From: a virus
Direction: 5' to 3' (one strand)
Virus record (IMG/VR): IMGVR_UViG_3300023181_000026
Location: 32,001-96,000 of that record
Length of the DNA: 64,000 nt
The notes under the pieces were generated by a model, which saw only the letters and a list, made by a program, of their open reading frames with translations, ran no database searches and was not told where the DNA came from. This document shows, piece by piece, positions 10,701 to 55,100 of this stretch; position 1 is the stretch's first letter, and every line of letters begins with the position of its first letter. A program made the translations under genes and the position numbers.

Positions 10701-12653
10701 AGCTAAGACAGATTGAGCGTCTACATTAGGAATTATAGCTGTTGCTCCGTCAATATTTAGGGTTTGATTTTCAGGCATTAAGGCTTCTGCATACCTTTGA
10801 GCTTCTTTATAGTCTTTCAAAGCTGACGTATGAGCATCTAAAGCTTCCTGTTTTATTTGAGTAGCCTCTTCTACACTTACATTTAACTGTTCCGATAATT
10901 CATTAATATCTAATTCATTTATAGATGATATAAAGTTTTCAGATGAGTTATCTAAAAGCCCCATTTTATCATCTAATTGTAATTTAGAGAATACAGCTAG
11001 ATTCAATTCCTGATTTGCTATTACCCCATCTTGTATACTATTAGCTATTTTTCCTCTAGCTGCTTTTTGTACATTTGCAGTTTTAAACTTTTCTAGTAAG
11101 TTATAATTTGAGTTTGTAGTTTGCCAAGTGGCTATGTCGGACTGAGCATCTACAGCTTTTTGATAATCTCTTATTCCAAAACCGCTTTTAACATTCGATA
11201 GTCCTCCTATAAGTGAGCCAATAAGAACTTCTTCTAGTCCTTCTTTAGTTCCATAAGTTTGTGCTAAAGATTTTTGTAAAGCGTCCATAGTAGAAAAACT
11301 ATCCTGCACAGCATTTGCATCATACTTTGATTCTAAATACCTTTGTCCAAAATTACCTAAAACAGATTGTCCTCCCTCTTCTATTACACCTTCTCTAATT
11401 GGAGATTTTAAGACATTTAAACTTGTTCCTAGTATTCTCTGCACTCTTGTAGGATTTATTGCTCTATAAGTATCTACAACACCCTCTAAAACCCTTTCTG
11501 TACCTATGCCCAAAGTTCTATTAAACCCTCTTTGTAATCCTCTGGTAGACAAAAATGACCCTACTCCAAAGAGATTTCCAAACTGAGCAATATTTGATCC
11601 TCCCACTAAAGCTACATTCGCAGCAAATAAAGTATTTGAACTTACTGTTGCTTCATCTCTGAATCTTGCCATTTCTTCTCCTGAAGGTGTCCCTCCAAAA
11701 GTATTTGAATAATAATCTAAATAATTTTTTTCAGCTTCTTTAAGAAAATGTCTTGCTTCTACTCCTGCTTCATAACCTGCTGAAGTATATAAGAACCTTG
11801 CGTTGTTAAACGCTTTAAGAGCTCTACTTGTAGGAACAGTTCTTTGGTAGGCATTCATCATCGAAGTTATAGAATGAAGAACTTTATTTTCATTTCTTAT
11901 GGCCGAAGCCCCTCCTCTCAAAAGTGCTCTTGATCCTGCTGTAGCTAAAGATGTACCTCCTGTAGCTGCTGCCCATATTCCTTCTGAGATTAAAGTACCT
12001 GTTACAAAAGACATACCCCCTAAGACTTTATCAGCCCAAAAGTTAGTTGTAGCTAAATTTGAAATTAAAGAGTTATTTTTTTCTTGTTCTGAATAGTAGT
12101 TAGGTAAATCTATGTCTAACTTAGTATTTACGTCATCTATCCATTTAGCAAAATCATTATTGTATATTGCATTGAACGTTCCTGTACTTATCCCCTCTAA
12201 TAGTCCGTTAACTGTACCTACAGTAGCATCTAATACATTAACTCCTGTTTTGGTTACAAATTTACCTACGCCGTTCAAAAGTTTCTCTCCTGCTCCTTGT
12301 TGTAATGCTAATCTATTTTCATTATTAACTCCTGACATATAATTCTCAAATCGGGCTTTATAAGTACCGTCATTAAGCTGTACATAGGCTTGGTCAATAT
12401 TTCTATCCCAAACTTCTAAAGCTGGTTTTTTAGTTGTGGTTGTATCCCACATACTTCCAGAGTCTGTAGAGAGAAGAGATTTTGATAAATCAATCTTATT
12501 TGGATTATACTTTCTTTGAATATCTTGCGCCACTCTTAAAGACCCATCGCCTAAAGGTGAGGCAATAGTGGCAGGTTCCACAGGATTTGTATTGAACTGA
12601 GTAGGAAAGTCGAAAGCAGGTATTCCTGCATTTAAGTTTTGGATTTCGTCCAT
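7752..12653 (-). CDS. Giant virion cargo/ejection-type protein (1633 aa)
   Basis: Gly/Ala-rich amphipathic segments in the N-terminal third, long coiled-coil middle, position in the crAss-like cargo cluster. Confidence 0.75.
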   Translation of the reverse strand: MDEIQNLNAGIPAFDFPTQFNTNPVEPATIASPLGDGSLRVAQDIQRKYNPNKIDLSKSLLSTDSGSMWDTTTTKKPALEVWDRNIDQAYVQLNDGTYKARFENYMSGVNNENRLALQQGAGEKLLNGVGKFVTKTGVNVLDATVGTVNGLLEGISTGTFNAIYNNDFAKWIDDVNTKLDIDLPNYYSEQEKNNSLISNLATTNFWADKVLGGMSFVTGTLISEGIWAAATGGTSLATAGSRALLRGGASAIRNENKVLHSITSMMNAYQRTVPTSRALKAFNNARFLYTSAGYEAGVEARHFLKEAEKNYLDYYSNTFGGTPSGEEMARFRDEATVSSNTLFAANVALVGGSNIAQFGNLFGVGSFLSTRGLQRGFNRTLGIGTERVLEGVVDTYRAINPTRVQRILGTSLNVLKSPIREGVIEEGGQSVLGNFGQRYLESKYDANAVQDSFSTMDALQKSLAQTYGTKEGLEEVLIGSLIGGLSNVKSGFGIRDYQKAVDAQSDIATWQTTNSNYNLLEKFKTANVQKAARGKIANSIQDGVIANQELNLAVFSKLQLDDKMGLLDNSSENFISSINELDINELSEQLNVSVEEATQIKQEALDAHTSALKDYKEAQRYAEALMPENQTLNIDGATAIIPNVDAQSVLALNIYMGRNSDRLARSYAKGISDIIGNEGAASALSLENSLQAKEVNKSKEVKSLTRQLEILDRDLNSRNEELIRIASRPRTEQGDARLQAFENRRQELLLAEERDSKRRNEINSELEAIAQDINQVRKAKRIANQEFANIFDDESVNAEKLVEATNNLRSLSETLDAWRRNGQESSAEGVGYMIDQYDKAQKAFVNANETFNKLSNPALRKAEIKTIFSPILNKFKKKGADISDYQKAEQEIYQQLRNQYNEFKVIVDNANTEIQSPQAKINLAEEGDSLPPIEQQVPTELTAEIEETYNTRREELLSQQQIELTQTEGLLENSEEYAQIQERHIQQLNALEQQRDEELFQNSGITLNTPQTLRERLQSIVDDILQNRRDVEELSTPLKRPSQQEMDEYKKLYDRNRRSVNGLREKDSQRFNQLKDRLNTYGRAVGTVEGGVVLADILEQIATLDEVNNNQTESLPVNNTNTEEIQASLTLAGGRRDTANKTQYWEKSEFRVLENGTYSITGINLQGLVDIVAKDNLVGILNNKPNKRNNRKQVSGLLTGENYNVGDRFIIQFEDGTEINVTIGQTKGLEINAAGISILNESTRFKAIPSTNLGTNYQPLLIELNRNATVTPLEINNSNFELEPGLTFTDFTNKPDDTETSLFVSNRNEFNKDLIQKFRAGAISMQELQNNISIYVMSEEGEVGGVLKSVPREIFEDGNYLELSQIRKIATQRALESNLENDLIDVQISVPIDRNSSYFGKPNFNLILDKSTGILATELLPISNKALEKIVDVGYISNEKLTLKVNEKGVNTTFVKRMSRGRKFPIVVFNYNGSKVAYPVSMNEIEIDKVGEFDNLLNADLPINEKVKGLNQYLSENNIDSNNLENGFYYISGQTNLNDPDHLDSIRDQLSSQSSYNNFEDWVNESTIETAKQLLQQQASINIDITDKPFHSPKLALKLKERVIIGQTANPTNTIVEETTNMAQKEIQDNTCA

Positions 12654-15437: not shown

Positions 15438-18400
15438 CTATCTTTTAGCATCTGCTTTTCCTCTCGCTTGAGCATAAGACTTGTTATATGTACTTGCTTG
15501 AGTCGGAGCTACAGTGTTTGGTATTATTCCGTTTTGAACAAGTAACTGTGGGGTTACCCCATTAAGTACTACCTGACCATTTGAATCCAAAGTTACATTT
15601 TGAAATAGGCTTGATAGCGTTCTAGCCTGATTGTTTTGTTGAGTATTTAAAGCATTCACTTGATTATTATATTGATACCAATTATTTAAGCTTTGCTCTT
15701 GATTATTCAAGGCTTGAAATGCTCGTTGTTCGTACAAATCTCTTTCTTGATTATCTATAATACCATATTGATTGAACAATTGTGTATTCATATTTGAAGT
15801 CCTTGCTAATTCTTGTTGATTTTGAACATTTGTTTGTCCTATAACTTGCCCTACATTATCCTGAACAGAGGCTGATATTTGAGTTAAAGCTGCTGCTCTT
15901 TGTGCAGGAGAAAGCCCATTTAGTTGATTAACTGCGGCTGTTTCTTGATTGTATAAAGCTTGAACTTGTGACTCATATCCTAATAAAGTTGCTTCATAAT
16001 TTCTATATTGTGCATCGGGCATTCTATTAGGTTGAAGGGGACTTGGAGCAGGAAGTGTCTGATCTATTAAGTCCAAACCTGCAAATTGATTAGTTGGTGT
16101 TCTAGGGATGTTTATTTGTGTATTATTAGCTTCTTCAGTTGTCTGATTTTGTCCTATGGCTGTAGTTGGCACCGCGCCTAAATAAAAATCACCTTTCAAA
16201 TTATTACTTTCTACATATTTTTTATAAAGTTCTGGATTCTGAGCTCTTAATTGACTTGAAGTGTTTATACCTTGCTGTCTTAATCTTTGTAGCTCGTCTT
16301 GAGGGATTATATCCACAGAGAAGTTAGGTCTTGACAAAGTAAAGTTACCAGCTTTAGAGTCATACCCCCTTATAGTATCTCCTTCTACAAACATTTGATT
16401 TCTCACTTGTGAAGATAAATTTTGATATTCAGGAGAAGTTTCTCCATATAATTGAGCGTAGTTACTCAAAATATTTGCATAATTATCATTAACTGCTCTT
16501 TGATAGTCCGCCCAAGTTTTTCCTTCCCGAAGTTGTCCGTTAGAATCAAATATTTGAGCATAAATTTCAGGATGTAAATTTTGTATTTCAGCTACTCTTT
16601 CTCCATAATTAGCTGAACTCACATTTCCGTAGAGTCCTGGAGTAGTTTGAGGCTGGTTACCATACTCAGGAAGTCCGTATTGACTTGGGATTATACCTCC
16701 ATCGGCATATTCTTTTAAGGAAGTTATAATTTCACTGGCTTGTTCCTCTGTAAGATTATGTTTCTTAGCTAAATCTTTTAGTTGATTTCCTGTGTATGTA
16801 CCTCCATTTTCAAATTGAAGCTCTGTAGTATTCCCTTTAAGCTCCTCTTGTTTTTGGAAAAGTTCGTCTGTAAAAGATGCTAATTGTTCATTAAGAGGGT
16901 CTTTAGCTAATTCTGTCTCTTGTATTTGAGTTGCTAAATATTGCTCATTTATAGCATTGGTTTGCTGATCTTCAAGCCCTGTTTTATCTTCTAGTTTTTT
17001 AAATAGCCCTTCTTGTTCTTTGTCTAATTTATTAAGTCCTATTTTATTTTTGTATTTATCTATAGCATCAGCAAAAGTATTATTTGCTTTAACTTCTATA
17101 CCAAACTGTCTTTTTATCTCTCTTGCGTTTTTTCCTCCCAGTTTAAGATTATCTGAAATAACTTTACTTCCCTGTTCTAATGCTAAATCCACTCCTCCTT
17201 GTTTGTGAGAGTCTCCTATAACTTGTTGAACATTACCTTGTGGAGATTGCACGTACTCTCCTCCTTCAACTTCTGCTGTAGGTCTTCCCTGAGATTGATT
17301 TTCTCCGATATAGCTGCCTGTTAAATATTGTTCTTGTGGGATAACTCCCCCATCTTCCATGAATACGTAATCTTCCCCTTCTTTTAAATTATTATAACTA
17401 TCATTCCATACAGCATATCTTCCTGAGTTTTGCCTATTTATTCCTAAAGTGGCAGGATCTTTCAAAAATATCATTTGAACATCTTTATTCCATTCGGGAT
17501 TGTTTCTGCGCTCATCTGTTGAAGTTATATTACCTTGTGCTCTTGCTATATTCTGAAATCTGTCTGTGCCAAATGTTTGAAAATCTGAACTTGGGTATTG
17601 ATTTATTATATTAGATTGAGGTATACCCGAAGATTGTATTAAAGGTTGAGATATTAAATTAGTTGCTGTAACAGGTGGGGTTGTGTCTAAAACAACCCTT
17701 TGATTAGGTTTGGCATATACATTTACAGATTGTCTATCTATTCCAAAATAAGCCCCTATTGGTTTGACTCTTTGATCATTGGAAAAAACTCCAGAAATAT
17801 ATTCCCCTTTTCCTGTGGTGTTTATATACCTCTTAGCGTTTATTACATCTTTGGCTGTACTATTATATGCATTTAAGCTGTCTTGGTAGGCTCTATATCT
17901 TGGGTCGTTTCTGTCCGTCACTGTTATAACTGGGGGATCTATTTCTCCTCCATTTTCGAAAGAACTTAAAGGTACAAAGTCTTGTTGATTTTGACGGTTG
18001 AAATAATTTGTCATAGAATCATTCTGAACATTTTGATAAGCTGCTCCTTGTAAACCTGTTCTTAAAAGAGATGCTAAGGTTGCTCCACCTGCGGCTATTC
18101 CTCTAACAGTATTTGCATTTCTACTTTGTTGACTAGCGTAAGGATTGTTATTATTAAATGCTATAGACTGACCTAACTTAAAAGTTGAGGTTTCTGTACT
18201 CACTGGAGCAAAGGCTCTGCTAAATGCATTTAAGTAGCTCAGAGTATTATTATTGTTTGATTGCTGAGGATTAAACAAACTTGCATCAAAATTAACAACT
18301 TGTCCTGTTTGTGCATCACTATACATACCTGCGTTTTCAGGTATTTGAGACATGCTATTTTGTAAAGGATCCTGTTGTGGAGAATAAGAAAAGTCCTCAG

Positions 18401-18554
18401 AATTATTCCATTGATTTTGTTCAGGTGCTCGCCAAACTTGTTGAGTGAAAGGTTGCATCTGGTTATTAGGTAGAGTCGTATTAGTATTTATATTAAAAGG
18501 CTGATTTTGTTGCTGTTGCCACTGATATAGCATTTGAAGAAATTGTTCATTCAT
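15438..18554 (-). CDS. Modular virion cargo protein (1038 aa)
   Basis: AEVEGGE...GDSHKQGG core resembling crAss-like cargo proteins; Q/N-rich N-terminus; four [FMY]-[EA]-[ND]-G-G motifs. Confidence 0.7.
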   Translation of the reverse strand: MNEQFLQMLYQWQQQQNQPFNINTNTTLPNNQMQPFTQQVWRAPEQNQWNNSEDFSYSPQQDPLQNSMSQIPENAGMYSDAQTGQVVNFDASLFNPQQSNNNNTLSYLNAFSRAFAPVSTETSTFKLGQSIAFNNNNPYASQQSRNANTVRGIAAGGATLASLLRTGLQGAAYQNVQNDSMTNYFNRQNQQDFVPLSSFENGGEIDPPVITVTDRNDPRYRAYQDSLNAYNSTAKDVINAKRYINTTGKGEYISGVFSNDQRVKPIGAYFGIDRQSVNVYAKPNQRVVLDTTPPVTATNLISQPLIQSSGIPQSNIINQYPSSDFQTFGTDRFQNIARAQGNITSTDERRNNPEWNKDVQMIFLKDPATLGINRQNSGRYAVWNDSYNNLKEGEDYVFMEDGGVIPQEQYLTGSYIGENQSQGRPTAEVEGGEYVQSPQGNVQQVIGDSHKQGGVDLALEQGSKVISDNLKLGGKNAREIKRQFGIEVKANNTFADAIDKYKNKIGLNKLDKEQEGLFKKLEDKTGLEDQQTNAINEQYLATQIQETELAKDPLNEQLASFTDELFQKQEELKGNTTELQFENGGTYTGNQLKDLAKKHNLTEEQASEIITSLKEYADGGIIPSQYGLPEYGNQPQTTPGLYGNVSSANYGERVAEIQNLHPEIYAQIFDSNGQLREGKTWADYQRAVNDNYANILSNYAQLYGETSPEYQNLSSQVRNQMFVEGDTIRGYDSKAGNFTLSRPNFSVDIIPQDELQRLRQQGINTSSQLRAQNPELYKKYVESNNLKGDFYLGAVPTTAIGQNQTTEEANNTQINIPRTPTNQFAGLDLIDQTLPAPSPLQPNRMPDAQYRNYEATLLGYESQVQALYNQETAAVNQLNGLSPAQRAAALTQISASVQDNVGQVIGQTNVQNQQELARTSNMNTQLFNQYGIIDNQERDLYEQRAFQALNNQEQSLNNWYQYNNQVNALNTQQNNQARTLSSLFQNVTLDSNGQVVLNGVTPQLLVQNGIIPNTVAPTQASTYNKSYAQARGKADAKR
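17935..17961. repeat. 27-nt exact direct repeat, copy 1 (encodes FENGGEIDP on the minus strand)
   Basis: ggatctatttctcctccattttcgaaa is identical to 19137-19163. Confidence 0.95.
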
Positions 18555-18556
18555 TT

Positions 18557-19309
18557 TTAAGTGTAGTTAATGTTTACTGGTAAACTTGTGTAAACCATTT
18601 TATTTAATATTTGTTCTAGTCCTCTATCATCAAATAATTCTATTAATTCGTCAATTTGAGGCTCTTTTCCATTATACTTCTCTAAATAGTTTTCAATATC
18701 TTCAGGTGTTACTTTCTGATTAGGCTTAAATCCTGCATCTCTTCTTAAAACTTGAAGACGTGAATGTACTTCATCGGGGTTGCTTAAGTAATTATAACTT
18801 TTTTGATAGTTTTCGGGTAAAAATTCTTTCTTTATGATATTATCCCTGACTACTTTGGAGTGTATTTTATTTATGTCTTCATTAAAATTCTGCAACTTGT
18901 GATTTGCTTCATGTAAATATATGTTAGGAGTGTCATTAATCATTAGTATCTCTCCTGTGTTTTTGTTATATCCTCCTCTTGCTCTTGGATTACCCGATAT
19001 ATCTTTCACCATAACAGGATCAGGCAGATTATTGGCAATTTTTACTATATTTTCTCTATCTATGTCATATTTGTCATTAACTTGCCTATTGACATACCAA
19101 TTTCTTAACCATTCTTTTTCCGCTTTATACTTCGGTGGATCTATTTCTCCTCCATTTTCGAAATTAGGTAATAGCTCATTTATAAAATTGTACTTATTGA
19201 TTTTTTCTTTAAGAGATTGAACAATTAAATCATCGCTGTAATCTATTTCTTTGTCTTTTATCTGATTTGCCATAAAAGGCTTTCCATTTTTAAAATCTTT
19301 ATATCTCAC
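18557..19309 (-). CDS. Zincin-like metallopeptidase domain protein
   Basis: IYLHEANH (HExxH, 18899-18913) plus downstream NPDEVHSR glutamate; GTG start. Confidence 0.75.
   Translation of the reverse strand: MRYKDFKNGKPFMANQIKDKEIDYSDDLIVQSLKEKINKYNFINELLPNFENGGEIDPPKYKAEKEWLRNWYVNRQVNDKYDIDRENIVKIANNLPDPVMVKDISGNPRARGGYNKNTGEILMINDTPNIYLHEANHKLQNFNEDINKIHSKVVRDNIIKKEFLPENYQKSYNYLSNPDEVHSRLQVLRRDAGFKPNQKVTPEDIENYLEKYNGKEPQIDELIELFDDRGLEQILNKMVYTSLPVNINYT
19137..19163. repeat. 27-nt exact direct repeat, copy 2
   Basis: Identical to 17935-17961. Confidence 0.95.
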
Positions 19310-19362: not shown

Positions 19363-22300
19363 TTATGGATATAACCTTTCATTATTTTTAGTAAATTTCA
19401 TTACAGATTTTATTTGAGTATTTCCAGTTTTGTAGAACCTAACTAAAAACCAATTTCCTTTCATTCGTTCTGGTAGAGGTGATTTGTAGGTTATGTTTTC
19501 TATATTGACTTCTTTTTCTACGTCTACGTTATCTTTTAACCAGTTTACTATATTATTATTCTCAGAGTTTACTCTGTTATAAATATAATTTACATTGAAT
19601 ATATCATCATACTTTGTTACTAATATTTCTTGATTGTCGATATTAGTTTTTGGGTACTGTAGTTTCTGGTAAATGTTGTTTTTCTCTTCTTCTACAAGTT
19701 TTAATACTCCTGAGTTATTTGTCGCATTGTAAACAACCATAGAAGTAAATCCTATTTTTGGCAGAGGTGCACTGTCATACTCATTGTGATATCTTTCAGA
19801 ATCTAAAATGAATTGGACATTCTCTAAAGTTTTTTTATCAAGACTAGGTTTTGTAGGTAATTCTATTGTCCAATCAAACGCATCTCCATAGAAAACTCTA
19901 TATGACCTATTGGTTAATAGGTGTGACCAGATACCTTTATTGTCCCCATAATTTAACCCTGATTGAAAATAATCCTGATGTGCCACATAATAGTTAGGCT
20001 TAAAGCTATAGTAGCTTATCCATGATTCTGTCAGAGGTGAATACGCCATAGTCCAAGAAGCTTCCTCGAAATATTCTGTATCTGATAAGTCAACTGGAGT
20101 AAGTATGTCCTGCTGACTAGGCTCTACAGATATCGTACAAGTGCACAGTCCATTTTGAATACCACAATCTCCTATGCAAGGGAAAGGCGTAGTGCTCTCT
20201 ACACAATTACATGTTAATTCTCCATTGTCATTTTCTAAATAACAAGGTTGCTCACATTGTTCACACTTAGGCGCATTCTGAACTGAAAGTATAATATTAT
20301 TTATGTTAGGGTTTGTAAAAGCTACAGGAAAACCATTAACATCTGTCAAAGCTATATAAGGTATTGAATTTCCTGAGTAGCCTGTAAAGTTACCTCCTAT
20401 TAAAATTTCACCTTCTTGGTCAGTATCAAAATCAAATATTGTCCTGTCTACAATTGAACTTCCTCCTGTTATTACTTTATTGTTATTGAAAGAACTGTCT
20501 AAACTTCCGTCTGGGTTAAGCCTTACTATTCCTACGGCTGGTTGACCTTTGTAAGTTTCAAATCTTCCTGCTGCTAGTATCTTATCTCCTTGCATCTGAA
20601 CTCTATACAAGAAGAAATTAAATTCATCTTGTCCTGGGTAACCAAATCCTTCTCCAACATTAAAAGTTGTATCTAATTCTCCATTAGGAAAAAGCCTGAC
20701 TATCTTTTTAGATACTATGCCATTATACTGAACATTTCTATTTCCTATTATGTATCTCCCCTGAGAATCCACTTCTATTGATTCGCATCTTTGAGAGCCA
20801 TTAACCGTAGCTGCAAATCTAGTTCCTCCTCCAAAAGACGGATCGATCTGCCCATTAGGTAATAGCTTAAATAAACCTTTAGTGGGCTGTCCATTATATA
20901 GAGCATTTACAGTAGCTACTAATATTTTTTCATTCTCCACTATCCTTATGTCATAAGCTCCTTGAGATGAAAATCCCACTGTAGAGTCAAATGTAGCATC
21001 ATAATCTCCATTAGACGTTAACCTAACTATACCGTTTGCTGTATTTCCATTATACGAAGTGAATTGTCCTCCTACCATAATCCTACCGTCTTCATAAATA
21101 TCTATAGCATTTACAGACATTGAAGATATTGTATTTGAAAAACCTAATCCTATATCAAAAGTATTATCTATAGTTCCGTTGTAATTTATTCTAAACAGTC
21201 CATTTATAGTGTTTCCAGCTACTGTAGTGAAGTTACCTCCTATTAAGATTCTTCCTAGGCTATCTCTTTTAAAAGTGAGTATGCTGCCATTATTAACTGC
21301 GGGTGTTGCTACTTCTGAGTTAAACAATCTTTGATTTGGTGAAGTAAATACACCTCCTGCAAAATAACCCAAACTAGGTGGGCACGGTGCTATAGGTGTT
21401 GAATTTATTCTTTGGCAAACATTTAAGGCAGCGTTAAAAATATAACCTTCGGGACACACTTGAGTGGTTATTTCTTTCTCACACATTTGAGAAGTAGGGT
21501 TATAAATATAGCCTTCAGGACAAGTTATGATAGGTTCCGCTCCACATAAAGTTTCATTTTTAACATATCCTAACTCTTCATCATATTGTATGCAAGGTGT
21601 GGGAATATAGTCTTTTTTAGTTAAGAATACTCTTTTATACTTAGAATCCCAAACCATTGCCAAGCCAATTCCATTGCTTGCATTGTCTATTTCCGAATTT
21701 GGAATAGATTTTAACATTTTAAATGGAAGTTGTTCTTTAAACCATCTTGTTTTACCTTCTGTTATATCTTTTAATTGTTCTCCATTTTGATCTAGTTGAA
21801 ATACCTGCCCTCTCTTAGCGTCTGCCCAAAAATGACCGAATTCACTGCTTACCATTGATACATGTTGTGTACCTGAATACCCTAATCCTGTTCTTTTAAA
21901 TTCTATAGGTCTCTTAGCAAATATACCTCCCGTTCCTAACTCAACTGTTTCGGGGGTAATTCTTTCCGCTAAAACATCAATTGAATTATATCTTAACATT
22001 CCATTTTCAAACCTACCTATAATTTGAGCTGATTCTATATCTGCTAAATCTACTAAGCGTCCTAATTCTGCTTTGAAATTATAAAAATCTAAAGGTCTGT
22101 ATCCCAGCCAAGGTTCAAATCTATCAATATCTGAATTGTCAGGGAGTGACCAAAATGTATTATTGGGTTGATAGGTTATTTTTCTGAAATAATCTGTATC
22201 ATAATCTACGGGTAGGCTTCTGTTACCTATTTGAGTTGTTTTTTTAGAATATATAAAATTATAGAAAAATGTGTTATCTTGTCTTATGGGTACATTTTTT

Positions 22301-25300
22301 TCTTGTGTCCAGTTTATAAAATCTTCTGTATTAGGGTAGAAGTTATTTTCTTGCCCTTCTCTTGCATATCTATAATTATTATTTATCTCTGACTCTACTA
22401 GAAAATAAGGTATTCCATAATAAGCTGTATAAAACTTAGAAGGGTTTTTTACATATGTTTTATTAGATCCTGTTAAACAATCAAAATTATAATCTGTATT
22501 TATATTTGGAAACAATGCTGCACCTATCCCTCCTCCATCTCTTGTAGCATAAAAATCAGCATAAAATCTGGGTACACCTACATTAGCTTCTATACTATAA
22601 TTAAATGGGGTTCTGTCAGCTAATCCTATAGCTGTTGTTTTAAATATAGGGTGTTTTATCTTTTTGGCAAACCTACTTATGAAAATATCTCCGCCAAATA
22701 TTTGAGGGAATGATTTAGGAGAAGTTAAGTCTCCTGTGTATCCTGTATTTATCCACTTTACATCATTTATTCCGCCATATTGATCTACTATGTAATTCTT
22801 TATAGAAAAATAAGCACTTGCTATCTGTCTCTCTAAAGTTGAGGATACGTTTACATTTTCACAGCCGACTGATTCAGAGGCAATAGTTCTACTATTATCA
22901 AACTGAGAAAAATAAGAAGGATAAATTACAGGATAGTCTTCCCCTGTTGAAATAAACACTGATGATTCTCTATCTCTATTATTTATCTTTACAGTTTCAC
23001 CTGTTGTTTCTTCTGTAAATTGGTAATTAGCTGGTTTTAAATACTTACTTGTTTTTATTGCCCGCATACTTTGACCTACCACTGTATTAGCAATAGCGTA
23101 GTTATACTTTCCAACAGATGTAAGATAAGACGCAAAGTTTTTAGGTTGTCCTAGACCATCTATAATGTCAAGCCATTGCTTTCTATATTGCCCCACAGTT
23201 AGAAATCCATTTAAAGCTGTAGCTGCTCCAAAAGCTACTGCTGCTAGAGTAGATGCACCTGCGGCATTATTTGTTCCTCCTCCTGTTGCTGTTCCTCCTA
23301 TTACTATTACAAACTGATTACCTGCTGCTAAAATAAAATCAGATACTTTCAGAGCTGTTTCTAAAGCGACTTCTGCTAGGGCTAAAGTTGTAGCTAAAGT
23401 GTAAGCATCATCTCCTAACACAACCTCTTTAACATGGTCTTCTACGTTTACAAAATTTCCTTGCATATGCCCAAATTGATAAGCTTCTATTTTAAGCTCT
23501 GTTGGTAAAGTAGGTTTTGTAAAACTTGTCTCTGGAGAATGAAAAGTATAGTTATTATTAGAGGTTCCCTGATTAGGATGTTGAATAAAAGAATTCCTAT
23601 TTATATCCGTATAAAGAAGTATATTCTCATGGTTATCATTATAAGGGAAATTAGGAAATAGCACAGGAGATGGATTAGTGGCTCCTGGTTCTGTATAAGA
23701 GAACATGTCATTAGCCAATCCCTTTGCTATAATAGACTTATTTAAAGTTCTATCACCTGCTTTTATTTTATAGCCTACAACCAAGTCTCTTTGCTGTTGT
23801 GTCATTAATCCGCTATCTACAGCAACATTTAAAAAATACTGTATAAGCTCTTCATCTAAACTTACACCTATAGGGTATATAATAGAATCCGAAAACGGGG
23901 TTAATTGTTCTGTACTCATAAAAGGGGATACAGAAAAATCAGGAAATTTATAATGTCTTATAGGTTGACATACAAAATTTGCACTTAATTGTCCATCACT
24001 TATATAATATTCTCTAAATTCATTTCTGTATTGCACAGGAATTTCACTCTCATTTATTATAAGAGAATTAGAGTTATATAGTTGTGGATTATCAGGATAT
24101 GTTCTACTGGATTCTGTATAACCAAATTTTCCGTATTTATAAGGAAGTGGGTCACAATTGTTATTTATAGGCACTCTATATTCACATGTTGCTATAAAAT
24201 CTTCTCTCTTAGAAAACACTGCATTTGTAATTTCTACTGTTTTTGACGCACAGTTATAGTTTCTAGCTGTAACAGAAAAACAACCACAAGGAGGTGATAT
24301 AATATATCTAGTACCCTCTACGGTCACTTTAGTTTTTAAAGGGCTGTCAATGGCTATATAGGCTGTTCCTGACGGGTAGTCTGCTTTATCTAATTCCACT
24401 ATCATACCCATAGCTAAATTTACTACGCCACTTTGAATATATGCGGTATCCGAACAAGAATTAAAAGTTGTGAATCTAACTCCATCGTTACTTGAAATAT
24501 CATCATTGGCATCACACTCTGATTTCCCAGTTACTTCGAATGCCATTTTATCTTGATCTCCAAAAAGTACTTTATACCACAATGATCTAGTATGTATAAA
24601 TGAAGTAAAGTCGCCTGATGCTAGAGACGTTTTATTTGTTTGAAGTTCTGCTACTGTTAATGCACCATCATACTGAAGAAATATTGAAGGATTTGGTAAG
24701 CCTTCTACGTAAGTTGTAGTAAGAGCATATTGACATAATGTATTAGAAGTAGTATCATTTCTCTTATAAACTTGTTCTCCAACAGGCATGTAAGCTTCTT
24801 CAAAAGCAGTGTCATTTTCATAGCCATCTTCATTTGTACCTGCTTTGTACATGTTACATAGGCTAGGTGGAGGGGTTGGCTCTAAAGAGCTTGTTTCCTC
24901 ATATTCTACTTCTATAAGTTCTGCTTCTACTGAATCTAAATATACCTCCGTAGACCCATCAATAAGAGTAGGTGTTCCACAATTTTCTTCAAATAATGCC
25001 TCTACATCACAATTTTGTCCAGAATATGTATCTGAAAGTATAGTACATAATTCTGAATTGTAAAGTATGCTTTGGCTATTACATATTTCATCTCTATTAT
25101 TTGCTATGTAATTAAAAAAATTGGTATAAGTGAAATCACACGGTAGAGTTAAAGTTAAGTTAGATAAATTTTCAACGGATTCAACTACACAACTTCTTTT
25201 TGTTTCTCTTTCTACAGTATTGTAATTATCTAGTTCTTCTGAGCCCCAAAATCCTAAGTCTTGCGCAGTGTTATAATATTGAAATCTTTTGGTTCTGTCT

Positions 25301-26697
25301 GCATCTGAGCAATTACTGCCGTAAGTATTTATAGATTGCGTATCTGTGTTATTTACTTCTTCTAGTTCAAAGCTGGTAGGCGGCCTATTTATAAGAGGAA
25401 AATCTGCGGATGTACCTCCATTACTGTAAAGAAGTTGTATTGAAAAAGGGTATACTTCGTCTCTTAAATAAGATTTATAAATAGAACTATTAACTCCATC
25501 TTTATATAAATCCTCTTTTGCTTCAACTGTAATCCATCTTAAAAATCCACCTAAAAGATTAGCACATGGTTGGAAATTTATCTCTTCCTGTTCTTTTGTT
25601 CCGTGCCAATAAAGTAAACCATTTGAAGATGTTAAGCCATCTGCTCTATCATATACTTTTTTGTATATTGAAAGTTTCTGTAGGCTTATAGCTCTTAGGT
25701 TATTAAGACTAGTGATTATAATTTCATTATCTGAGGTAGGCCTTACCTCACCTTCATAGTAGTTAACCCCACTAATACCTCCAGAATATATTATAGCTAT
25801 TTTATAATAAGGATAATCCCTATCTAGATTTTCTATATTTAATTTTATACCAAAATTAGTCTCATATTCAAGTTCAGGTTGTGAAATTATAGTATTATTT
25901 TCGTCAAATATAGCTATAGGATTCGTATTATTATAATAAGAACTTAATTCATTTCCATTTATATCTGAATAAGCTATTAGTACTTCATATTCTCCTGCTT
26001 TTAATCTTCCGCCTTGTTGAATAGAAGTTGGTATAACTATAGGTTGATTAAAGTCCTTTGACACTTTTAACTTTTCGCAATCTAAGCAAGTTGGAGTAGT
26101 ATTATCTTCTCCACAAGAATCTAAACCTGTTACTTTGTATTGGTCTAGTTCATCAACTTGTAAATAACGCATTGTATTTCTCCCATCAGTCCACCATAAT
26201 GTGGTTCCACTAAATTCATACTTTACGATTATTTTTCTTATCGGATATTGTGTGGAAAAGTTTAAACAAAGATTGCAGCTATCATTAAGTAGTGTTGTGT
26301 AAGTACAAGTTGGAGTCTGCACTTGCCCTTCTAATGGTTCAGCTAATAAATTCTTAATATTGCAATTACATTCAGATTCTATATCATCGGCATTGATAAC
26401 ATTATTTATATTATCAATATATCCTATCTCAGAAACTTTTGTAAGAGGGTTAGTTAGAAAAAAATAAGTTCTATTGGAATTAACTTCATATTTTTCTCCT
26501 ATAATAACAAATCCCTGCGGAAAATTGTTACAAAGAATATTTGAAGGTTCGTCCTGTAATAAAAACGTATCTCCCACATCAGAAGCTATATTACTGTTGA
26601 GGGAGAAAGTATATTCTGTCTCAGTTAAATCTATTGGAGACTTGTCAGTGTTCATACCTTTTCTTGGTGAAGAGATACTAATATTTTTTTCAGGCAT
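19363..26697 (-). CDS. Tail stabilisation/'muzzle' protein (2444 aa) with inserted delta-60-like propeller repeats and Cys-rich repeats
   Basis: N-terminal KGMNTD...YTFSLN and C-terminal WISYYSFKP motifs resemble crAss-like stabilisation proteins; follows the ring-protein genes; repeats of the type GRILIGGNF...LFRINYNGTIDNTF. Confidence 0.75.
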   Translation of the reverse strand: MPEKNISISSPRKGMNTDKSPIDLTETEYTFSLNSNIASDVGDTFLLQDEPSNILCNNFPQGFVIIGEKYEVNSNRTYFFLTNPLTKVSEIGYIDNINNVINADDIESECNCNIKNLLAEPLEGQVQTPTCTYTTLLNDSCNLCLNFSTQYPIRKIIVKYEFSGTTLWWTDGRNTMRYLQVDELDQYKVTGLDSCGEDNTTPTCLDCEKLKVSKDFNQPIVIPTSIQQGGRLKAGEYEVLIAYSDINGNELSSYYNNTNPIAIFDENNTIISQPELEYETNFGIKLNIENLDRDYPYYKIAIIYSGGISGVNYYEGEVRPTSDNEIIITSLNNLRAISLQKLSIYKKVYDRADGLTSSNGLLYWHGTKEQEEINFQPCANLLGGFLRWITVEAKEDLYKDGVNSSIYKSYLRDEVYPFSIQLLYSNGGTSADFPLINRPPTSFELEEVNNTDTQSINTYGSNCSDADRTKRFQYYNTAQDLGFWGSEELDNYNTVERETKRSCVVESVENLSNLTLTLPCDFTYTNFFNYIANNRDEICNSQSILYNSELCTILSDTYSGQNCDVEALFEENCGTPTLIDGSTEVYLDSVEAELIEVEYEETSSLEPTPPPSLCNMYKAGTNEDGYENDTAFEEAYMPVGEQVYKRNDTTSNTLCQYALTTTYVEGLPNPSIFLQYDGALTVAELQTNKTSLASGDFTSFIHTRSLWYKVLFGDQDKMAFEVTGKSECDANDDISSNDGVRFTTFNSCSDTAYIQSGVVNLAMGMIVELDKADYPSGTAYIAIDSPLKTKVTVEGTRYIISPPCGCFSVTARNYNCASKTVEITNAVFSKREDFIATCEYRVPINNNCDPLPYKYGKFGYTESSRTYPDNPQLYNSNSLIINESEIPVQYRNEFREYYISDGQLSANFVCQPIRHYKFPDFSVSPFMSTEQLTPFSDSIIYPIGVSLDEELIQYFLNVAVDSGLMTQQQRDLVVGYKIKAGDRTLNKSIIAKGLANDMFSYTEPGATNPSPVLFPNFPYNDNHENILLYTDINRNSFIQHPNQGTSNNNYTFHSPETSFTKPTLPTELKIEAYQFGHMQGNFVNVEDHVKEVVLGDDAYTLATTLALAEVALETALKVSDFILAAGNQFVIVIGGTATGGGTNNAAGASTLAAVAFGAATALNGFLTVGQYRKQWLDIIDGLGQPKNFASYLTSVGKYNYAIANTVVGQSMRAIKTSKYLKPANYQFTEETTGETVKINNRDRESSVFISTGEDYPVIYPSYFSQFDNSRTIASESVGCENVNVSSTLERQIASAYFSIKNYIVDQYGGINDVKWINTGYTGDLTSPKSFPQIFGGDIFISRFAKKIKHPIFKTTAIGLADRTPFNYSIEANVGVPRFYADFYATRDGGGIGAALFPNINTDYNFDCLTGSNKTYVKNPSKFYTAYYGIPYFLVESEINNNYRYAREGQENNFYPNTEDFINWTQEKNVPIRQDNTFFYNFIYSKKTTQIGNRSLPVDYDTDYFRKITYQPNNTFWSLPDNSDIDRFEPWLGYRPLDFYNFKAELGRLVDLADIESAQIIGRFENGMLRYNSIDVLAERITPETVELGTGGIFAKRPIEFKRTGLGYSGTQHVSMVSSEFGHFWADAKRGQVFQLDQNGEQLKDITEGKTRWFKEQLPFKMLKSIPNSEIDNASNGIGLAMVWDSKYKRVFLTKKDYIPTPCIQYDEELGYVKNETLCGAEPIITCPEGYIYNPTSQMCEKEITTQVCPEGYIFNAALNVCQRINSTPIAPCPPSLGYFAGGVFTSPNQRLFNSEVATPAVNNGSILTFKRDSLGRILIGGNFTTVAGNTINGLFRINYNGTIDNTFDIGLGFSNTISSMSVNAIDIYEDGRIMVGGQFTSYNGNTANGIVRLTSNGDYDATFDSTVGFSSQGAYDIRIVENEKILVATVNALYNGQPTKGLFKLLPNGQIDPSFGGGTRFAATVNGSQRCESIEVDSQGRYIIGNRNVQYNGIVSKKIVRLFPNGELDTTFNVGEGFGYPGQDEFNFFLYRVQMQGDKILAAGRFETYKGQPAVGIVRLNPDGSLDSSFNNNKVITGGSSIVDRTIFDFDTDQEGEILIGGNFTGYSGNSIPYIALTDVNGFPVAFTNPNINNIILSVQNAPKCEQCEQPCYLENDNGELTCNCVESTTPFPCIGDCGIQNGLCTCTISVEPSQQDILTPVDLSDTEYFEEASWTMAYSPLTESWISYYSFKPNYYVAHQDYFQSGLNYGDNKGIWSHLLTNRSYRVFYGDAFDWTIELPTKPSLDKKTLENVQFILDSERYHNEYDSAPLPKIGFTSMVVYNATNNSGVLKLVEEEKNNIYQKLQYPKTNIDNQEILVTKYDDIFNVNYIYNRVNSENNNIVNWLKDNVDVEKEVNIENITYKSPLPERMKGNWFLVRFYKTGNTQIKSVMKFTKNNERLYP

Positions 26698-50334: not shown

Positions 50335-51921
50335 TTATATACCGTCAGCAAAAACAGGAACTGGTTTTGTAGCATAGTTTGTACAGTCTACTAATACAGC
50401 TTCGGTTGATAAGAATACTATGGCAACACTTAAAGCATTTCTTAAGGCGGATATAGTAACTCCTACAGGATCTAGTATTCCTGATTTATCTAAGTCTACT
50501 ATTTTATCTTTTATTACATCGAATCCTTTTTTACCTTTTACTTTGGTTTTTAATTCTTCTATCTGTTCTTTTGAGTATCCTGCGTTTAATAGGATTTGTT
50601 GGAACGGGTATTGAATTGAATTTTGTATTACTGTCTGACCTTCATTCTTAATTTTCATTCTTTTTGCGGCGTTTAAAAGTGCTGTTCCACCTCCTAATAC
50701 CACTCCGTCTTTATAAGCTACTGTAAGGGCGTTAACAGCGTCTACAATCCTATCTCTCTTCTCTTTCATCTCCATCTCTGAAGTTGCTCCTACATATATT
50801 CTAGCTACTCCTCCTTTCAGTCTTGCAACTCTTTCCTTCAACAGTTTTAAATCCGAAACATCTTCTGTGATATTTTGAAGTTCTAAAAGTGAAGTTACTT
50901 TTTCTTCAATTAAGTTATTTGTTTTACTATTTATAAAAGATGTGTAATCCTCGGTTAAAATTAATTTCTCTATCTCTCCTAAGTCTTCTACAGTAGCTTT
51001 GGAAATATCGTCATCCTTTTCTTGTAAGAACAGTTTAGAACCACAAACCAAAGCTATATCTTCCATAGCTTCCTCTCTAAATTGTCCAAATTCTGGACTT
51101 TGCATTACAGTAACCTTAATCTTATCAGCCATTCTTGTAGATATCAATCTTTGAAGTAGTAAAGGGGCTATTTCATTACATACTATAAGTAGATGGTCAC
51201 CCTGTGTTTTTTCCAGAATAGGGAGTATCTCTTCTTCTCTTTCTATTCTACCTATATATAGTAGTATTTTTGATTTTTTATATTCCGCTGTCTTTTTTAT
51301 TGTGTCCTGAAAAAAATATTGAGATTCAGGAGCCATTTTCATTTTAAGTCCTTTAGAAGTTTCTACATAAGTTTTAGAAGTCCTTGATTCTTCCACTGAT
51401 ATAAAACCATGTTCTCCTACCTCTTGAAATGTTTCTGCTATTAGCGTTCCTATTTCATCGTCATTGTTAGCAGATATAGTAGGTATAGCTTTCATTCTTG
51501 GGAAATCATCTTTTATGCTTATTGCGGATTTTTCTAAGTAGCTTATAACATCCTCTGTTGCATTTTCCATCTCTTTTTTAAGTTGATAAAATGATTTTCC
51601 TTCCTCTAAAACTTTTATACCTTCTTCTACAATGGCTTGAGTAAGTATGCAACTCGAACTCGTTCCGTCTCCTACAGCTTCATTAGTTTTTATTGCAGCA
51701 GAAATAATCATATTAGCCCCCATATTTAAATGAGGGTCTTCAAGTATTATACTATTTGCCACCGTAACTCCGTCCTTTGTGACTAAAGGTATTGAGTATG
51801 GTTGGTCTATAGCTACAGGTAATCCTTTTGCACCTGCTGTCACTTTAACCGCATTAGCTACTATGTCTAGTCCTTCTTTAAGTCCTTTTCTTGCCTCTTT
51901 ACCGTAAATAATTTTCTTCAT
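50335..51921 (-). CDS. groEL: Phage-encoded chaperonin GroEL
   Basis: TKDGVTVA, GDGTSS, ERVARLKGGVA, GGGTAL and GILDP motifs; 528 aa; no GGM tail. Confidence 0.95.
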   Translation of the reverse strand: MKKIIYGKEARKGLKEGLDIVANAVKVTAGAKGLPVAIDQPYSIPLVTKDGVTVANSIILEDPHLNMGANMIISAAIKTNEAVGDGTSSSCILTQAIVEEGIKVLEEGKSFYQLKKEMENATEDVISYLEKSAISIKDDFPRMKAIPTISANNDDEIGTLIAETFQEVGEHGFISVEESRTSKTYVETSKGLKMKMAPESQYFFQDTIKKTAEYKKSKILLYIGRIEREEEILPILEKTQGDHLLIVCNEIAPLLLQRLISTRMADKIKVTVMQSPEFGQFREEAMEDIALVCGSKLFLQEKDDDISKATVEDLGEIEKLILTEDYTSFINSKTNNLIEEKVTSLLELQNITEDVSDLKLLKERVARLKGGVARIYVGATSEMEMKEKRDRIVDAVNALTVAYKDGVVLGGGTALLNAAKRMKIKNEGQTVIQNSIQYPFQQILLNAGYSKEQIEELKTKVKGKKGFDVIKDKIVDLDKSGILDPVGVTISALRNALSVAIVFLSTEAVLVDCTNYATKPVPVFADGI

Positions 51922-52172
51922 TATGCTCCTAAAATATCGTCTTCTCTAATTACTATTATTTCTTTTCCTTCAAGCTCTACGTTTAAACCTGTTTGTTTTT
52001 GTTTTATTATAGTTTGTCCTACAAGATCCCTATCTACTACTGAATCTCCTATAGCTATAACTTTAAACTTATAGTCTTCAAAATCAAATTCCTGATTAGA
52101 ACTTGAAGTAAGTAGATTACTTTTCTTAATTTTTTCTAGAAACACTCTGTCTTTTTTTGGTTTTATCTCCAT
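51921..52172 (-). CDS. groES: Co-chaperonin GroES (Cpn10)-like protein
   Basis: IKPKKDRV start, VIAIG and IVIREDDILG end; adjacent to groEL. Confidence 0.85.
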   Translation of the reverse strand: MEIKPKKDRVFLEKIKKSNLLTSSSNQEFDFEDYKFKVIAIGDSVVDRDLVGQTIIKQKQTGLNVELEGKEIIVIREDDILGA

Positions 52173-55100
52173 CTTGAAAATTTACTTGTATCTGTAAAGA
52201 ATTGTTTTTGTTTATATTGTCTTGATTTTTCCTTTTTCTGTTGCTGCTCTCCACTTTCCACTTTTACACCTACTGCATCTAAATAATCTGCCCAAGCTAA
52301 TGCGTGTGAAAAAGCAATCATTCTATCGAAGTTGCCTCCTGCCTTGTAATTAATAATTTCGTCTAGTAAATATATATCATTAATTCTTGTAATACCAAGA
52401 GCTTTTCTAGGGCTACCATCTTCATCAAATCCTATGATCAACTCCTCATTACAATAATTTAAAAGACTTTTCATCAAATGCGACTGATTCTTAGGTGTAG
52501 GATATAGTCCATAAGGAGTGTTAGCTGAAGCTTTTGGATTAATTCTTTTAGAGAAGTCTACTCCATCTGCTAGTAATAAATCTGCTTTTCCTTTTCTTTC
52601 CAAATATCTTATGAATCCGATATCCGCATTTTCCATAAGACACTGCGCATTAAACCCTTCTATTAACCATTCACAGTTTCTATCGAAATTATCAGGTATT
52701 GGAGGTCTTGAACAATAAGAAGCTAAAATACATCCTGCAAATGGATCGTCTAAAAGCCCTTCTCTTCTCAATATATAAAATGCACCTACAGATTCTGTTC
52801 CAGCTTTTGTCTGTTTATAAGGGTCAAGACCTGAAACATTTAAACCATAAGGAGGCATATCTGTAGGAATTTCATCAAATAATGTAACGGGAGCGTCATG
52901 TACTCCGCCTCCAAAAGGAAATTCAACTGGGCGTTTTGATGATAAAGTGTATTCTAACTTACTGCCTACTAAAGTTAAGTCTACTAGTTTGCCTGTTAAT
53001 CCTTGTTCAACTAAATATTGTCTGTGTCTTTGAGCTTCTTTTATAGGAAATGGATTTCCATTATCTGACCTCAATATATCATCTACATCTAGAGGATAGT
53101 ACATTACATACTTATCATACTCTGTAGGATCTTTTACTAGCTTTTTCCTATTATTAATAAATAAATCTTTTGCAAATCTCCAGTCAGTTTCACCTAGTTT
53201 TATCTTTTCTAAGTCTGGGGATGGAGTTTTTATTCTAAGATAGTCTTTAAGATTTGTTTCTTTTTTAAAATTGCCTTCTTCATATCCAAACTGGCCAGGA
53301 ACAAATATTCCAAAACTTCTTCTCTTCCATGTAATTAAATCCTTCTCTTCTATTCTATTTTCTAATCTATCCCAGTTCATTGGCAATAAATCATAAGTCT
53401 CAGGATTCATCATCATCTTTATAGCGTCTGTTGAAAGTTCCGCGTTTCCAGATGTACCAGTTAGAATCGGTACGCATTTCCAACCATGAGGTGTTTTAAA
53501 TGAAGGTAAGGCAGCAGTGTAAGGTGCAATGCAATCAAATTTTCCGCAATTATGGGTAACTATGTAATCTCCCGCTATAAAAAGTTTATCTTCATTGTCT
53601 ACTTTTATACAATATGCATCATCAATTCTTGACTTTTCTATATTCGTTATATTAACTCTAGTTCTGTAAAAATCTGCCTTACCTCCTTCTCTTTTTTTAA
53701 ATCTGTCTATTTTTCTTTCTAAATTAAATAGGCATTCATCTGCATAAAAATGTATTACATAAGATTTTTTACCTTGTTTATACTCTCCTTTGTATGTAAA
53801 TTTGGGATACTTTATAGAAACTTTAACTCTTATACCTAGACTTCTAAGTATTCTGACTACTGAATCCTTTATTCTTTCTTCCGATGTAGATATAGACTGA
53901 CCTCCTCTTTTATCTATTGTACCATCAGTATCTCCTAAGCCTTTTATAAATTGCTTTCTTTGTTCTATACTACCTCTCTCGTAGATTTCATTTATATTTT
54001 TCAGTTTAAAAGTACCTAAGGTTTTTAGATTTTGTATGTGAGAGTTAGTCTTTCCAGCTTTTTTCTTTACGTGTATTACATCACATACTGGAGATTGCTT
54101 AGGAGTATAACAGGAGTACTCTAGATCTATAGACTTAGCATAGTCTTTTATAGACTCTATTATTTGATTATCCATGCTTACAAAGCTCCCCCTATGGCAA
54201 TTACCATCTCCTGTAAATAAGCCCATTATGTAGGGGTCTATTAATAAATCTCTTTCTTCATATTCTATAGCTTTAGATAAAGGTATACTGTAAATAGATT
54301 TTATTACTTTCTCATGTCCATATCTATGATCTTTTTGAAAATATCTAAATTTTTCTAGAAGTTCCTTTGTTGACTTTACTGAGTGTTCTTTACTATTATT
54401 ATTTCTTACAGACCATAAATGATTTTCGCAGCACTCTATTTCTCTTCCGTCTGAAAAAGATATTTTATATAATTGTCTATTTTCAAATTTATGTTTTTCG
54501 AGCACTCTAGTTAACTTTCCATCTCCTCCATATATCTCATCACCAATTTCTATATCTTTTATTGGTATAGTCTTATCTTTAAGGTAAATCAAAGTATCTT
54601 TTTGTAAAGCTTCATCTAATATAAATACACTTGGTGCAGCACCTGCTGTTTTTTCAGACTTTTTAGTTTGTCCCTTCTCTAAGTTACGTATATAAATGTC
54701 TGAGTGAACAATAGGTGTATTAGCTTTGGTTTTCAATCCTAACTGAATGTGACTAGTCCAGTCGTTAGAATTATTCTCCATGTAGAAAGCATGGTTTATT
54801 TCCCCCATTGAAGTCTGAATAAGACGTGTTATCATCTCTAAGTCTTCTTTACTTCCCCCTGATACTGTAGCTTGAGAATTTGGCTTTATTAGTGCTTTCC
54901 AATGTGTTATTGAAGCTAAATCCGTCGATTTAGAGAACCTACGTGAGCCAAAAACTATCATTCCTTTATTACTTTTTTCAGCGTCATTATAATTTTCTGC
55001 TATAAAAAGTTCATTATCCCTCATTGGGGGTACTATGATCGGCTCCGTCCCATCTTCTTGAGGTATAGGTGTTTTAAAATAATTACAATGAAAATATAAC

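Follow-up and report, generated by a model that had tools for sequence, protein, structure and literature searches.

A Gly-Gly tag at the borders of exchangeable modules in putative cargo proteins of a crAss-like phage

Two neighbouring genes in a 64,000-nucleotide stretch of phage DNA (positions 32,001 to 96,000 of IMG/VR record IMGVR_UViG_3300023181_000026, hereafter the window) encode a protein of 1038 aa, P0001, and one of 250 aa, P0002, which together carry five copies of a short peptide ending in Gly-Gly. We show that this peptide, the tag, is genuine and restricted to these proteins, that selection acts on it as a peptide, and that it stands at the borders of modules that move. The source is a single-contig phage genome of 131,611 bp with about 32% G+C, and the phage is crAss-like. 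By gene position P0001 corresponds to cargo protein 1 (gp45) of Bacteroides phage crAss001, and both P0001 and P0002 are probably packed in the particle and injected. Other P and L numbers denote the relatives and loci that were compared. No phages are more abundant in the human gut than the Crassvirales. The tag is an experimental handle on the way in which they load several megadaltons of protein and eject them, and accounts for the shuffling of lysozyme, glucosaminidase, zincin, ADP-ribosyltransferase and other modules between proteins and phages.

Results and Discussion

The tag and its distribution

In its general form the tag is a hydrophobic residue followed by Q, E or A, any residue, and Gly-Gly, after which there is usually T, E, Q or K and then V, I or Y. 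The pattern [FYM][QEA]xGG occurs five times in the genome (113 open reading frames (ORFs) of at least 100 aa, 32,038 aa), and all five occurrences are in P0001 and P0002 (Table 1). Shuffling that preserves composition gives an expectation of 0.10 in these two proteins, and none of the 5000 shuffles reached five; in all other ORFs of the genome the pattern was found 0 times, against 2.0 expected from shuffles. Among 149 zincin-bearing representatives the tag is enriched 6.4-fold (303 versus 47 +/- 6 in shuffles), and the residues after the GG are enriched in T (3.1 times), V (4.1 times) and I (3.4 times). P0001 is rich in Q and N, and one could suspect that the tags are an accident of chance or of composition in Gly-, Asn- and Gln-rich proteins, but the shuffles, the invariant alignment columns and the enrichment in 149 proteins of unrelated length refute this, and we regard it as practically inconceivable. 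Self-cleavage by Asn-Gly chemistry was also rejected, since the residue before the GG is variable.

A sequence-only reading of the same DNA had located the five motifs in the two proteins and had seen two of them continue as EIDPP. All its coordinates are correct, and the two 30-nt segments that encode FENGGEIDPP, 1202 bp apart, are identical at 29 of 30 positions. Its further proposals, that the motifs lie at domain boundaries and delimit swappable modules, are borne out by the models and homologues described below, and the motifs persist in related genomes. Full-text literature searches gave no published description of the tag, which is real, widespread and, so far as we have searched, apparently undescribed, as that reading had suspected.

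A D-P-P extension follows 11 of the 86 tags at zincin N-borders versus 3 of 538 other tags. As it is typical of zincin N-borders, the copy in P0001 (aa 204-208) is a zincin-type junction, and its presence there is most simply explained by gene conversion from the neighbouring P0002. The sequence x-I/V-D-P-P-I/V-K after the tag (P0002 aa 55-59, P0001 aa 204-208 and 11 zincin N-borders) is similar to the Pro-Pro sites cut by zincins of the Pro-Pro endopeptidase (PPEP) type, which are among the fold matches of P0002 with Z 5.7-6.0; the likeness is pure resemblance.

The 1633-aa protein of the window contains a tag-like I-E-E-G-G (11370-11384, minus strand), with V before and Q after it, and at eight related loci the homologous giant keeps the form hydrophobic-x-E-E-G-G-Q. 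This may be part of a fold, or else a cargo protein associated with the RNA polymerase may have a true tag here.

Conservation and placement of the tags

In an alignment of 14 homologues (27-54% identity) G402-G403, G584 and G619-G620 of P0001 are invariant. More distant homologues (25-30% identity), which comprise those of 16 metagenome loci and gp041 of Cellulophaga phage phi17:2, still have three to six tags each; the 960-aa downstream neighbours of these homologues have none. The Gly codons of the tags are varied (12 codon pairs among 43 sites), so selection acts on the peptide and not on the DNA, and a DNA-level signal was rejected for this reason.

The AlphaFold model of P0001 has a mean predicted local distance difference test score (pLDDT) of 54, but residues 426-575 reach 77-93 and most of about 620-800 is at 73-93. 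None of the four tags is in a segment with pLDDT of 50 or more, and tags 3 and 4 occupy the short gaps that separate confident domains. In the model of P0002 the disordered stretch with the tag is followed immediately by a confident zincin domain. Tags are also found near the ends of proteins, seven within 20 residues of the N-terminus and two (P0090 and P0145) within 20 residues of the C-terminus. Moreover, the last 11 residues of P0024 follow a GG, and a glucosaminidase at locus L007 has its tag at about residue 296 of 302. At these ends a mere hinge would have nothing to join. When the residue after the GG was examined for an N-degron signal, L and F were mildly depleted and K was not.

Table 1. 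Positions, in the window, of the tags, repeats, modules and genes of the P0001-P0002 region.
Feature	Position	Strand	Remarks
P0001, 1038-aa modular virion (cargo) protein	15438..18554	-	ORF; PHROG 36695; order kept in 16 loci and phi17:2
P0002, 250-aa protein: leader, tag, zincin-like module	18557..19309	-	GTG start backed by N-terminal R-Y-K-D
Tag 1, FENGG (aa 199-203 of P0001)	17946..17960	-	Between N-terminal Q/N-rich, Gly-rich-helix domain and inserted module
Tag 2, MEDGG (aa 399-403 of P0001)	17346..17360	-	Before conserved core; GG invariant in 14 homologues
Tag 3, FENGG (aa 581-585 of P0001)	16800..16814	-	In 11-residue low-confidence gap after core
Tag 4, YADGG (aa 616-620 of P0001)	16695..16709	-	In 9-residue low-confidence gap before C-terminal domain; GG invariant
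P0002 tag, FENGG (aa 50-54)	19148..19162	-	In disordered stretch before zincin fold; upstream of HEANH 133-137
30-nt repeat copy 1, encodes FENGGEIDPP in P0001	17932..17961	-	29/30 identical to copy 2
30-nt repeat copy 2, encodes FENGGEIDPP in P0002	19134..19163	-	29/30 identical to copy 1
Mobile module, aa 204-398 of P0001	17361..17945	-	Common to lysozyme-zincin proteins
Conserved core, aa 404-580 of P0001	16815..17345	-	Small beta domain (motifs E-x-E-G-x-E, G-x-S/T-H-x-x-G-G) followed by helices
Helical mini-module, 30 residues (aa 586-615 of P0001) between tags 3 and 4	16710..16799	-	Present in phi17:2 gp041 too
Zincin-like metallopeptidase fold, aa 57-242 of P0002	18584..19141	-	Mean pLDDT 83; HEANH at 18899-18913

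Module exchange at the tags

Modules are exchanged between proteins at the borders that the tags mark. The 204-398 module of P0001 is found by BLASTP in P0004 (4e-40), P0023 (2e-36), P0019 (3e-21) and also P0025. In P0004 and P0023 a tag stands at either end of it, in P0019 and P0025 at least at the upstream end. Two of the 14 homologues, P0001 and P0004, have this insert, it is absent and a single tag present in 11, and in P0008 the corresponding site, also flanked by tags, is occupied by an insert unrelated to it. P0009, P0011 and P0012 have further inserts that bring extra tags with them. In another 32 proteins, too, a tag precedes the domain of the conserved core. Over its first 58 residues, which comprise the leader, the tag and the EIDPP extension, P0002 shares 55% identity with the N-terminal part of P0128, which then goes on with a different payload of 550 residues.

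A search for shorter forms of P0001 gave one probable fragment and no evidence of natural splits at the tags. There were no matches in a scan of IMG/VR with the P0001 alignment or in a PDB sequence profile search with alignment A1, fold searches with the whole 1038-residue model returned only coiled-coil and helical-hairpin matches, and the ESM Atlas scores for module 204-398, at most 0.82, were uninformative.

The insert of P0008 (aa about 205-305; compare aa 12-147 of P0145) is itself a recurrent tag-bounded module with the signature D-Y-D ... H-x-T-F-S-N-E-S-I-Y-S. Another small module, a beta domain of about 60 residues (I-T-M-x-G-V ... Y-x-F-x-G ... E-x-P), ends the lysozyme-zincin proteins P0019-P0026 and begins phi17:2 gp041 (L018 8008-10695). 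It has a tag before or after it, belongs to no assigned family and may be a virion anchor.

P0002 and its zincin relatives

The zincin of P0002 is probably an active peptidase, as its predicted fold and its catalytic residues suggest. The top fold matches of the model in VIA-align were PepO and Zmp1 (Z 7.0), lethal factor and PPEP-2 (Pro-Pro endopeptidase 2; Z 6.0) and neprilysin, and nearly all the top rows were zinc peptidases, with Z values that are middling; Foldseek gave nothing below E 0.1. In an alignment of 20 zincin sequences H121, E122 and E168 are invariant and H125 nearly so, which gives HExxH and the downstream Glu ligand of the gluzincin type, the HExxH motif is kept in 138 of 142 zincin domains, and the sole HExxH in the genome's ORFs of at least 100 aa is that of P0002. 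The protein has no PHROG or Pfam family, and no Pfam zincin model, MPTase-PolyVal included, matched it at E 0.1. With tblastn P0002 had no matches among 50,697 phage records, although a zincin profile did find the modules of phi17:2, and a word-index search returned only P0002 itself.

A full HMMER search gave 177 relatives of the zincin domain, which may have any position in proteins of 79 to 3098 aa. The closest relatives of P0002 consist of a lysozyme or SLT domain, a linker, a tag, the zincin, a tag, further modules, a tag and a small C-terminal beta domain. In P0041 the zincin is N-terminal to a crAss_CARG1 domain in one protein (PF25725 score 7e-25), and P0055 combines it with ART-PolyVal and a kinase-like domain. 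The spacing is regular, with a GG at 12-16 residues past the zincin end in 79 cases. In phi17:2 gp042, directly upstream of the cargo-1-type gp041, the order is Phage_lysozyme2, tag with EVDPP, zincin, tag and second zincin. P0002 retains the N-terminal R-Y-K-D of gp042, its post-lysozyme helix, the junction and one zincin, without the lysozyme domain, and is a lysozyme-less remnant of a protein of this type. Elsewhere among the relatives the slot of P0002 is taken by a bare lysozyme (L006) or by the glucosaminidase with a tag near its C-terminus (L007), and in L003 it is empty.

In the database P0002 is called from Met13 (238 aa); the 12 residues added by a start at the upstream GTG are encoded at 19274-19309 (minus strand). 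Since the N-terminal R-Y-K-D of the long form is common to P0128, P0021-23 and phi17:2 gp042, the 250-aa form with the GTG start is probably correct.

The sequence-only reading had offered the zincin either as the protease of the tags or as one more payload. A profile search found no zincin of the P0002 family in crAss001, and none was present at the 16 related loci with homologues of three to six tags, in fetched flanks of up to 10 kb per side. As the tags occur there without it, the zincin is not a general explanation of the tags. It is best read as one more payload module, belonging to a virion lysozyme-zincin protein, so that the payload half of the proposal fits better, although in lineages that have the zincin it could be the tag protease.

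crAss001 gp45: structure and gel-band spectra

The cargo protein 1 of crAss001 (Pfam PF25725, crAss_CARG1; PDB 7QOG, 7QOI, 7QOJ, 7QOL and 8CKB) has been seen in the particle by cryo-electron microscopy (cryo-EM), where residues 425-552 form the portal-bound segment (Bayfield et al. 2023, PMC10172136). This ordered segment opens with A-F-G-G (GG at 427-428), and because it is modelled from there on, the chain is continuous across that tag. In all gp45 has eight to nine aromatic-x(0-2)-GG motifs which bracket its ordered segments; one of the others lies 4 residues before the tail-barrel-bound helix 214-245 and another 6 residues after residue 552.

For 10 of 13 gel bands of purified crAss001 virions there are published matrix-assisted laser desorption/ionization (MALDI) peak lists (PMC6235969), which we compared with gp45 (90.7 kDa, 25 usable tryptic peptides) by peptide-mass fingerprint against decoys. 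As positive controls, the portal gp20 had 11 peaks in band 5 against a decoy mean of 2.3, and the counts were 23 for gp26 and 18 for gp22 in band 6, 22 for gp22 and 10 for gp25 in band 7, 14 for gp25 in band 8 and 11 for gp23 in band 9. Bands 1-9 are assigned to gp44; gp50 and gp47; gp49; gp20; gp26 and gp22; gp22 and gp25; gp25; and gp23. The protein gp45 was never above decoys in bands 1-10, and semi-tryptic gp45 peptides starting or ending at a GG gave only coincidences at chance level in the same bands. The missing gp45 band is equally well explained by odd migration or weak staining, with only 10 of the 13 bands covered, and later LC-MS/MS did detect gp45 in virions (PMC10172136).

What the tag may do

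We propose that the tag sits in a floppy linker just before each independently folding module of those proteins that crAss-like and related Bacteroidota phages would pack into the particle and eject. It would stay in the chain as a short recognition handle that holds each module at the portal or the tail barrel, and lets the ejection protein thread out module by module, and with the same short sequence at every joint recombination or gene conversion could swap modules without breaking the system. That the tag remains uncut, be it as a handle or as a passive linker, we find marginally probable; the docking or threading handle taken by itself is plausible, a little short of probable. No protease was found to travel with the tags: the zincin is absent from crAss001 and from the fetched flanks (up to 10 kb per side) of the 16 loci, and no known prohead protease was recognised among the structural genes of the window. 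Cutting at tags near protein ends would free only a few residues, and a handle at the same place would still work. The T, V and I enriched after the GG are beta-formers, which would fit a strand-turn docking by strand addition. Of the processing or sorting site suggested by the sequence-only reading, the part that stands is that the tags mark the borders of exchangeable modules, whereas cleavage stays a hypothesis and the zincin does not co-occur with the tags.

Several points weigh against a handle. So far no partner is known that would bind the tag, and for crAss001 an ordered tag peptide on the capsid was not reported. The conserved P5-P1 with GG at P2-P1 has the look of a protease site, and the module most often partnered with the tags is a zincin that keeps its catalytic residues and has tags on both sides. 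In crAss001 an uncut chain would mean twelve intact chains passing through the portal tunnel, which would be sterically demanding, and no full-length gp45 was seen between about 100 and 70 kDa, while the portal, also with 12 copies, gave its 11 peaks.

These points bring in cleavage after the GG. The cutter would be the zincin in phages that have it, or else some other protease of phage or host, acting inside the head or once the protein is ejected, and lysozyme, zincin and further modules would come free as individual proteins, like those of MARTX toxins or of the inner body of phiKZ. We consider such cleavage possible, and would not be greatly surprised by it. The site has the shape of a GG-type site, with the conserved residues mainly N-terminal of the cut, and the zincin, probably active from its HExxH, the retained Glu and the zinc-peptidase fold, is bracketed by tags at a fixed distance and, in the cultured phage phi17:2 as in this one, is encoded immediately upstream of the cargo-1-type gene. 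P0001 holds a near nucleotide-identical copy of the N-border junction of this very zincin, zincin processing of polyvalent proteins was predicted by Iyer et al. 2017 (PMC5512222), and the absence of full-length gp45 from bands 1-10 would agree with cutting. That absence is negative evidence from 10 of 13 bands, however, and the crAss001 model runs unbroken through the tag at 425-428. The tags of crAss001 and of the 16 loci, within the flanks covered, are without zincin, and about half of the short free-standing zincins in alignment A2, read by eye, have no clear upstream tag. The GG-type sites of adenain and the C39 peptidases have their hydrophobic residue at P4, whereas in the tags it is at P5, three residues before the first Gly.

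Beyond this, the tag could be both the cleavage and the address code of a phage-borne, self-processing string of effectors, which we find doubtful; any module set between two tags would then be packed, injected and freed by the co-packaged zincin. If so, the phages most abundant in the human gut, and those of marine Bacteroidota, would possess a delivery system of the MARTX kind. If the tag is an address or a cutting code, it would be a new rule of virion assembly, and could serve to load phage particles with foreign proteins.

A simpler idea is a passive linker or recombination joint, where the GG is a flexible hinge without any specific partner and the likeness of the joints is a by-product of module shuffling. 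The 29/30-nt repeat shows recent gene conversion between joints 1.2 kb apart, the modules clearly move and the tags are in disordered linkers. We nevertheless think it unlikely, as the flanking positions are kept at 25-30% identity with varied codons, tags are retained at protein ends where they join nothing, and the motif is absent from the other multidomain proteins of the genome.

Comparison with known systems

Like gp45, P0001 is encoded after the tail and muzzle genes and before the cargo-2-like and giant proteins, and both proteins have a Gly-rich hydrophobic helix at the N-terminus, a small beta domain (S/T-H-E, GG) in the centre and a Q/N-rich helical C-terminus. They differ in the order of the core motifs, in the extra mobile module of P0001 and in the gp45 tags, which lack the Q/E position. 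PF25725 did not match P0001 at E 0.1 or any of five distant homologues at E 1, and scored 2e-66 with gp45 itself. A comparison by hhalign of 32 P0001-type cores with 4 CARG1-type sequences gave a weak match (E 0.0015, probability 17%, 45 columns), and with the whole proteins it was negligible. The core of P0001 is possibly, on this alignment, a distant relative of the portal-binding crAss_CARG1 domain.

In the polyvalent proteins of phages and conjugative elements a zincin-like MPTase is the hub domain (PMC5512222). The relatives of P0002 are like them in stringing together lysozyme or SLT, one or two zincins, ART-PolyVal, kinase-like and other modules over 200-3000 aa, and P0019-P0026, P0055 and phi17:2 gp042 have the at least two effector domains by which polyvalent proteins are recognised. 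P0002, in contrast, has one recognised enzymatic domain, and the modules of P0001 include no recognised enzyme. The words linker and glycine are absent from the text of PMC5512222, and the junction tag seems not to be described there.

Head-packed proteins of other phages also have short processing motifs. The capsid-targeting sequences of T4 are cut at L/I-x-E by gp21, and the inner-body proteins of phiKZ at S/A/G-x-E by gp175. As in these, the motif here is short and limited to proteins that are probably packed in the head, and their leader with a cleavage site can be compared with the 49-residue leader and tag of P0002. The difference is that their protease is identified and the cleavage measured, whereas here no known prohead protease was recognised among the structural genes of the window and the tag is known from sequence. 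Nor did the proteins of the window, scanned against PHROGs, or six proteins scanned against Pfam give any protease-annotated family, and a cognate cysteine protease of the GG-site type (C39, adenain, Ulp, African swine fever virus pS273R) was not among the matches of the window proteins in these scans.

Polymorphic toxins have junction motifs of their own, VENN in CdiA and PxxxxDPxGL in Rhs, and the MARTX toxins are strings of effectors. The likeness is in the short conserved peptide between a constant part and exchangeable payload cassettes (see also PMC3482391). The sequence of the tag and the delivery machine are different, and the tag has many internal joints per protein and not one. The cargo-loading peptides of encapsulins are likewise short peptides in a disordered linker or terminus, and like them the tag is proposed to send cargo inside an HK97-fold shell. 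Its sequence is unrelated to theirs, and no binding of the tag to the shell has been seen.

Gene order of the window

The minus strand of the window has the genes for the terminase, a GroEL-like chaperonin, portal, capsid and tail proteins, then a gene for 2444 aa, and after it P0002, P0001, an 888-aa protein and giants of 1633, 747 and more than 1671 aa. The layout is the same in crAss001, with muzzle gp44, cargo 1 gp45, cargo 2 gp46 and then the RNA-polymerase-associated giants, and in phi17:2 from gp043 to gp039. The position of the P0001 gene, with tail or muzzle genes on one side and cargo-2-like and giant genes on the other, is conserved in the 16 metagenome loci. Indirect pointers to the virion are the match of P0001 to PHROG 36695 'virion structural protein' (E 9e-45) and the annotation of phi17:2 gp041.

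The 2444-aa protein (19363-26697, minus strand) has five DUF5122 beta-propeller repeat matches and a weak CBM_14 match, and seems to be of the tail or muzzle type rather than a polymerase. At locus L007 its homologue is broken into ORFs of 1484 and 794 aa with an unmatched 363-aa ORF between them. The gene of the GroEL-like chaperonin adjoins that of the portal, and the terminase large subunit, of 1035 aa, has a long N-terminal extension (50335-51921 and 52163-55270, both on the minus strand).

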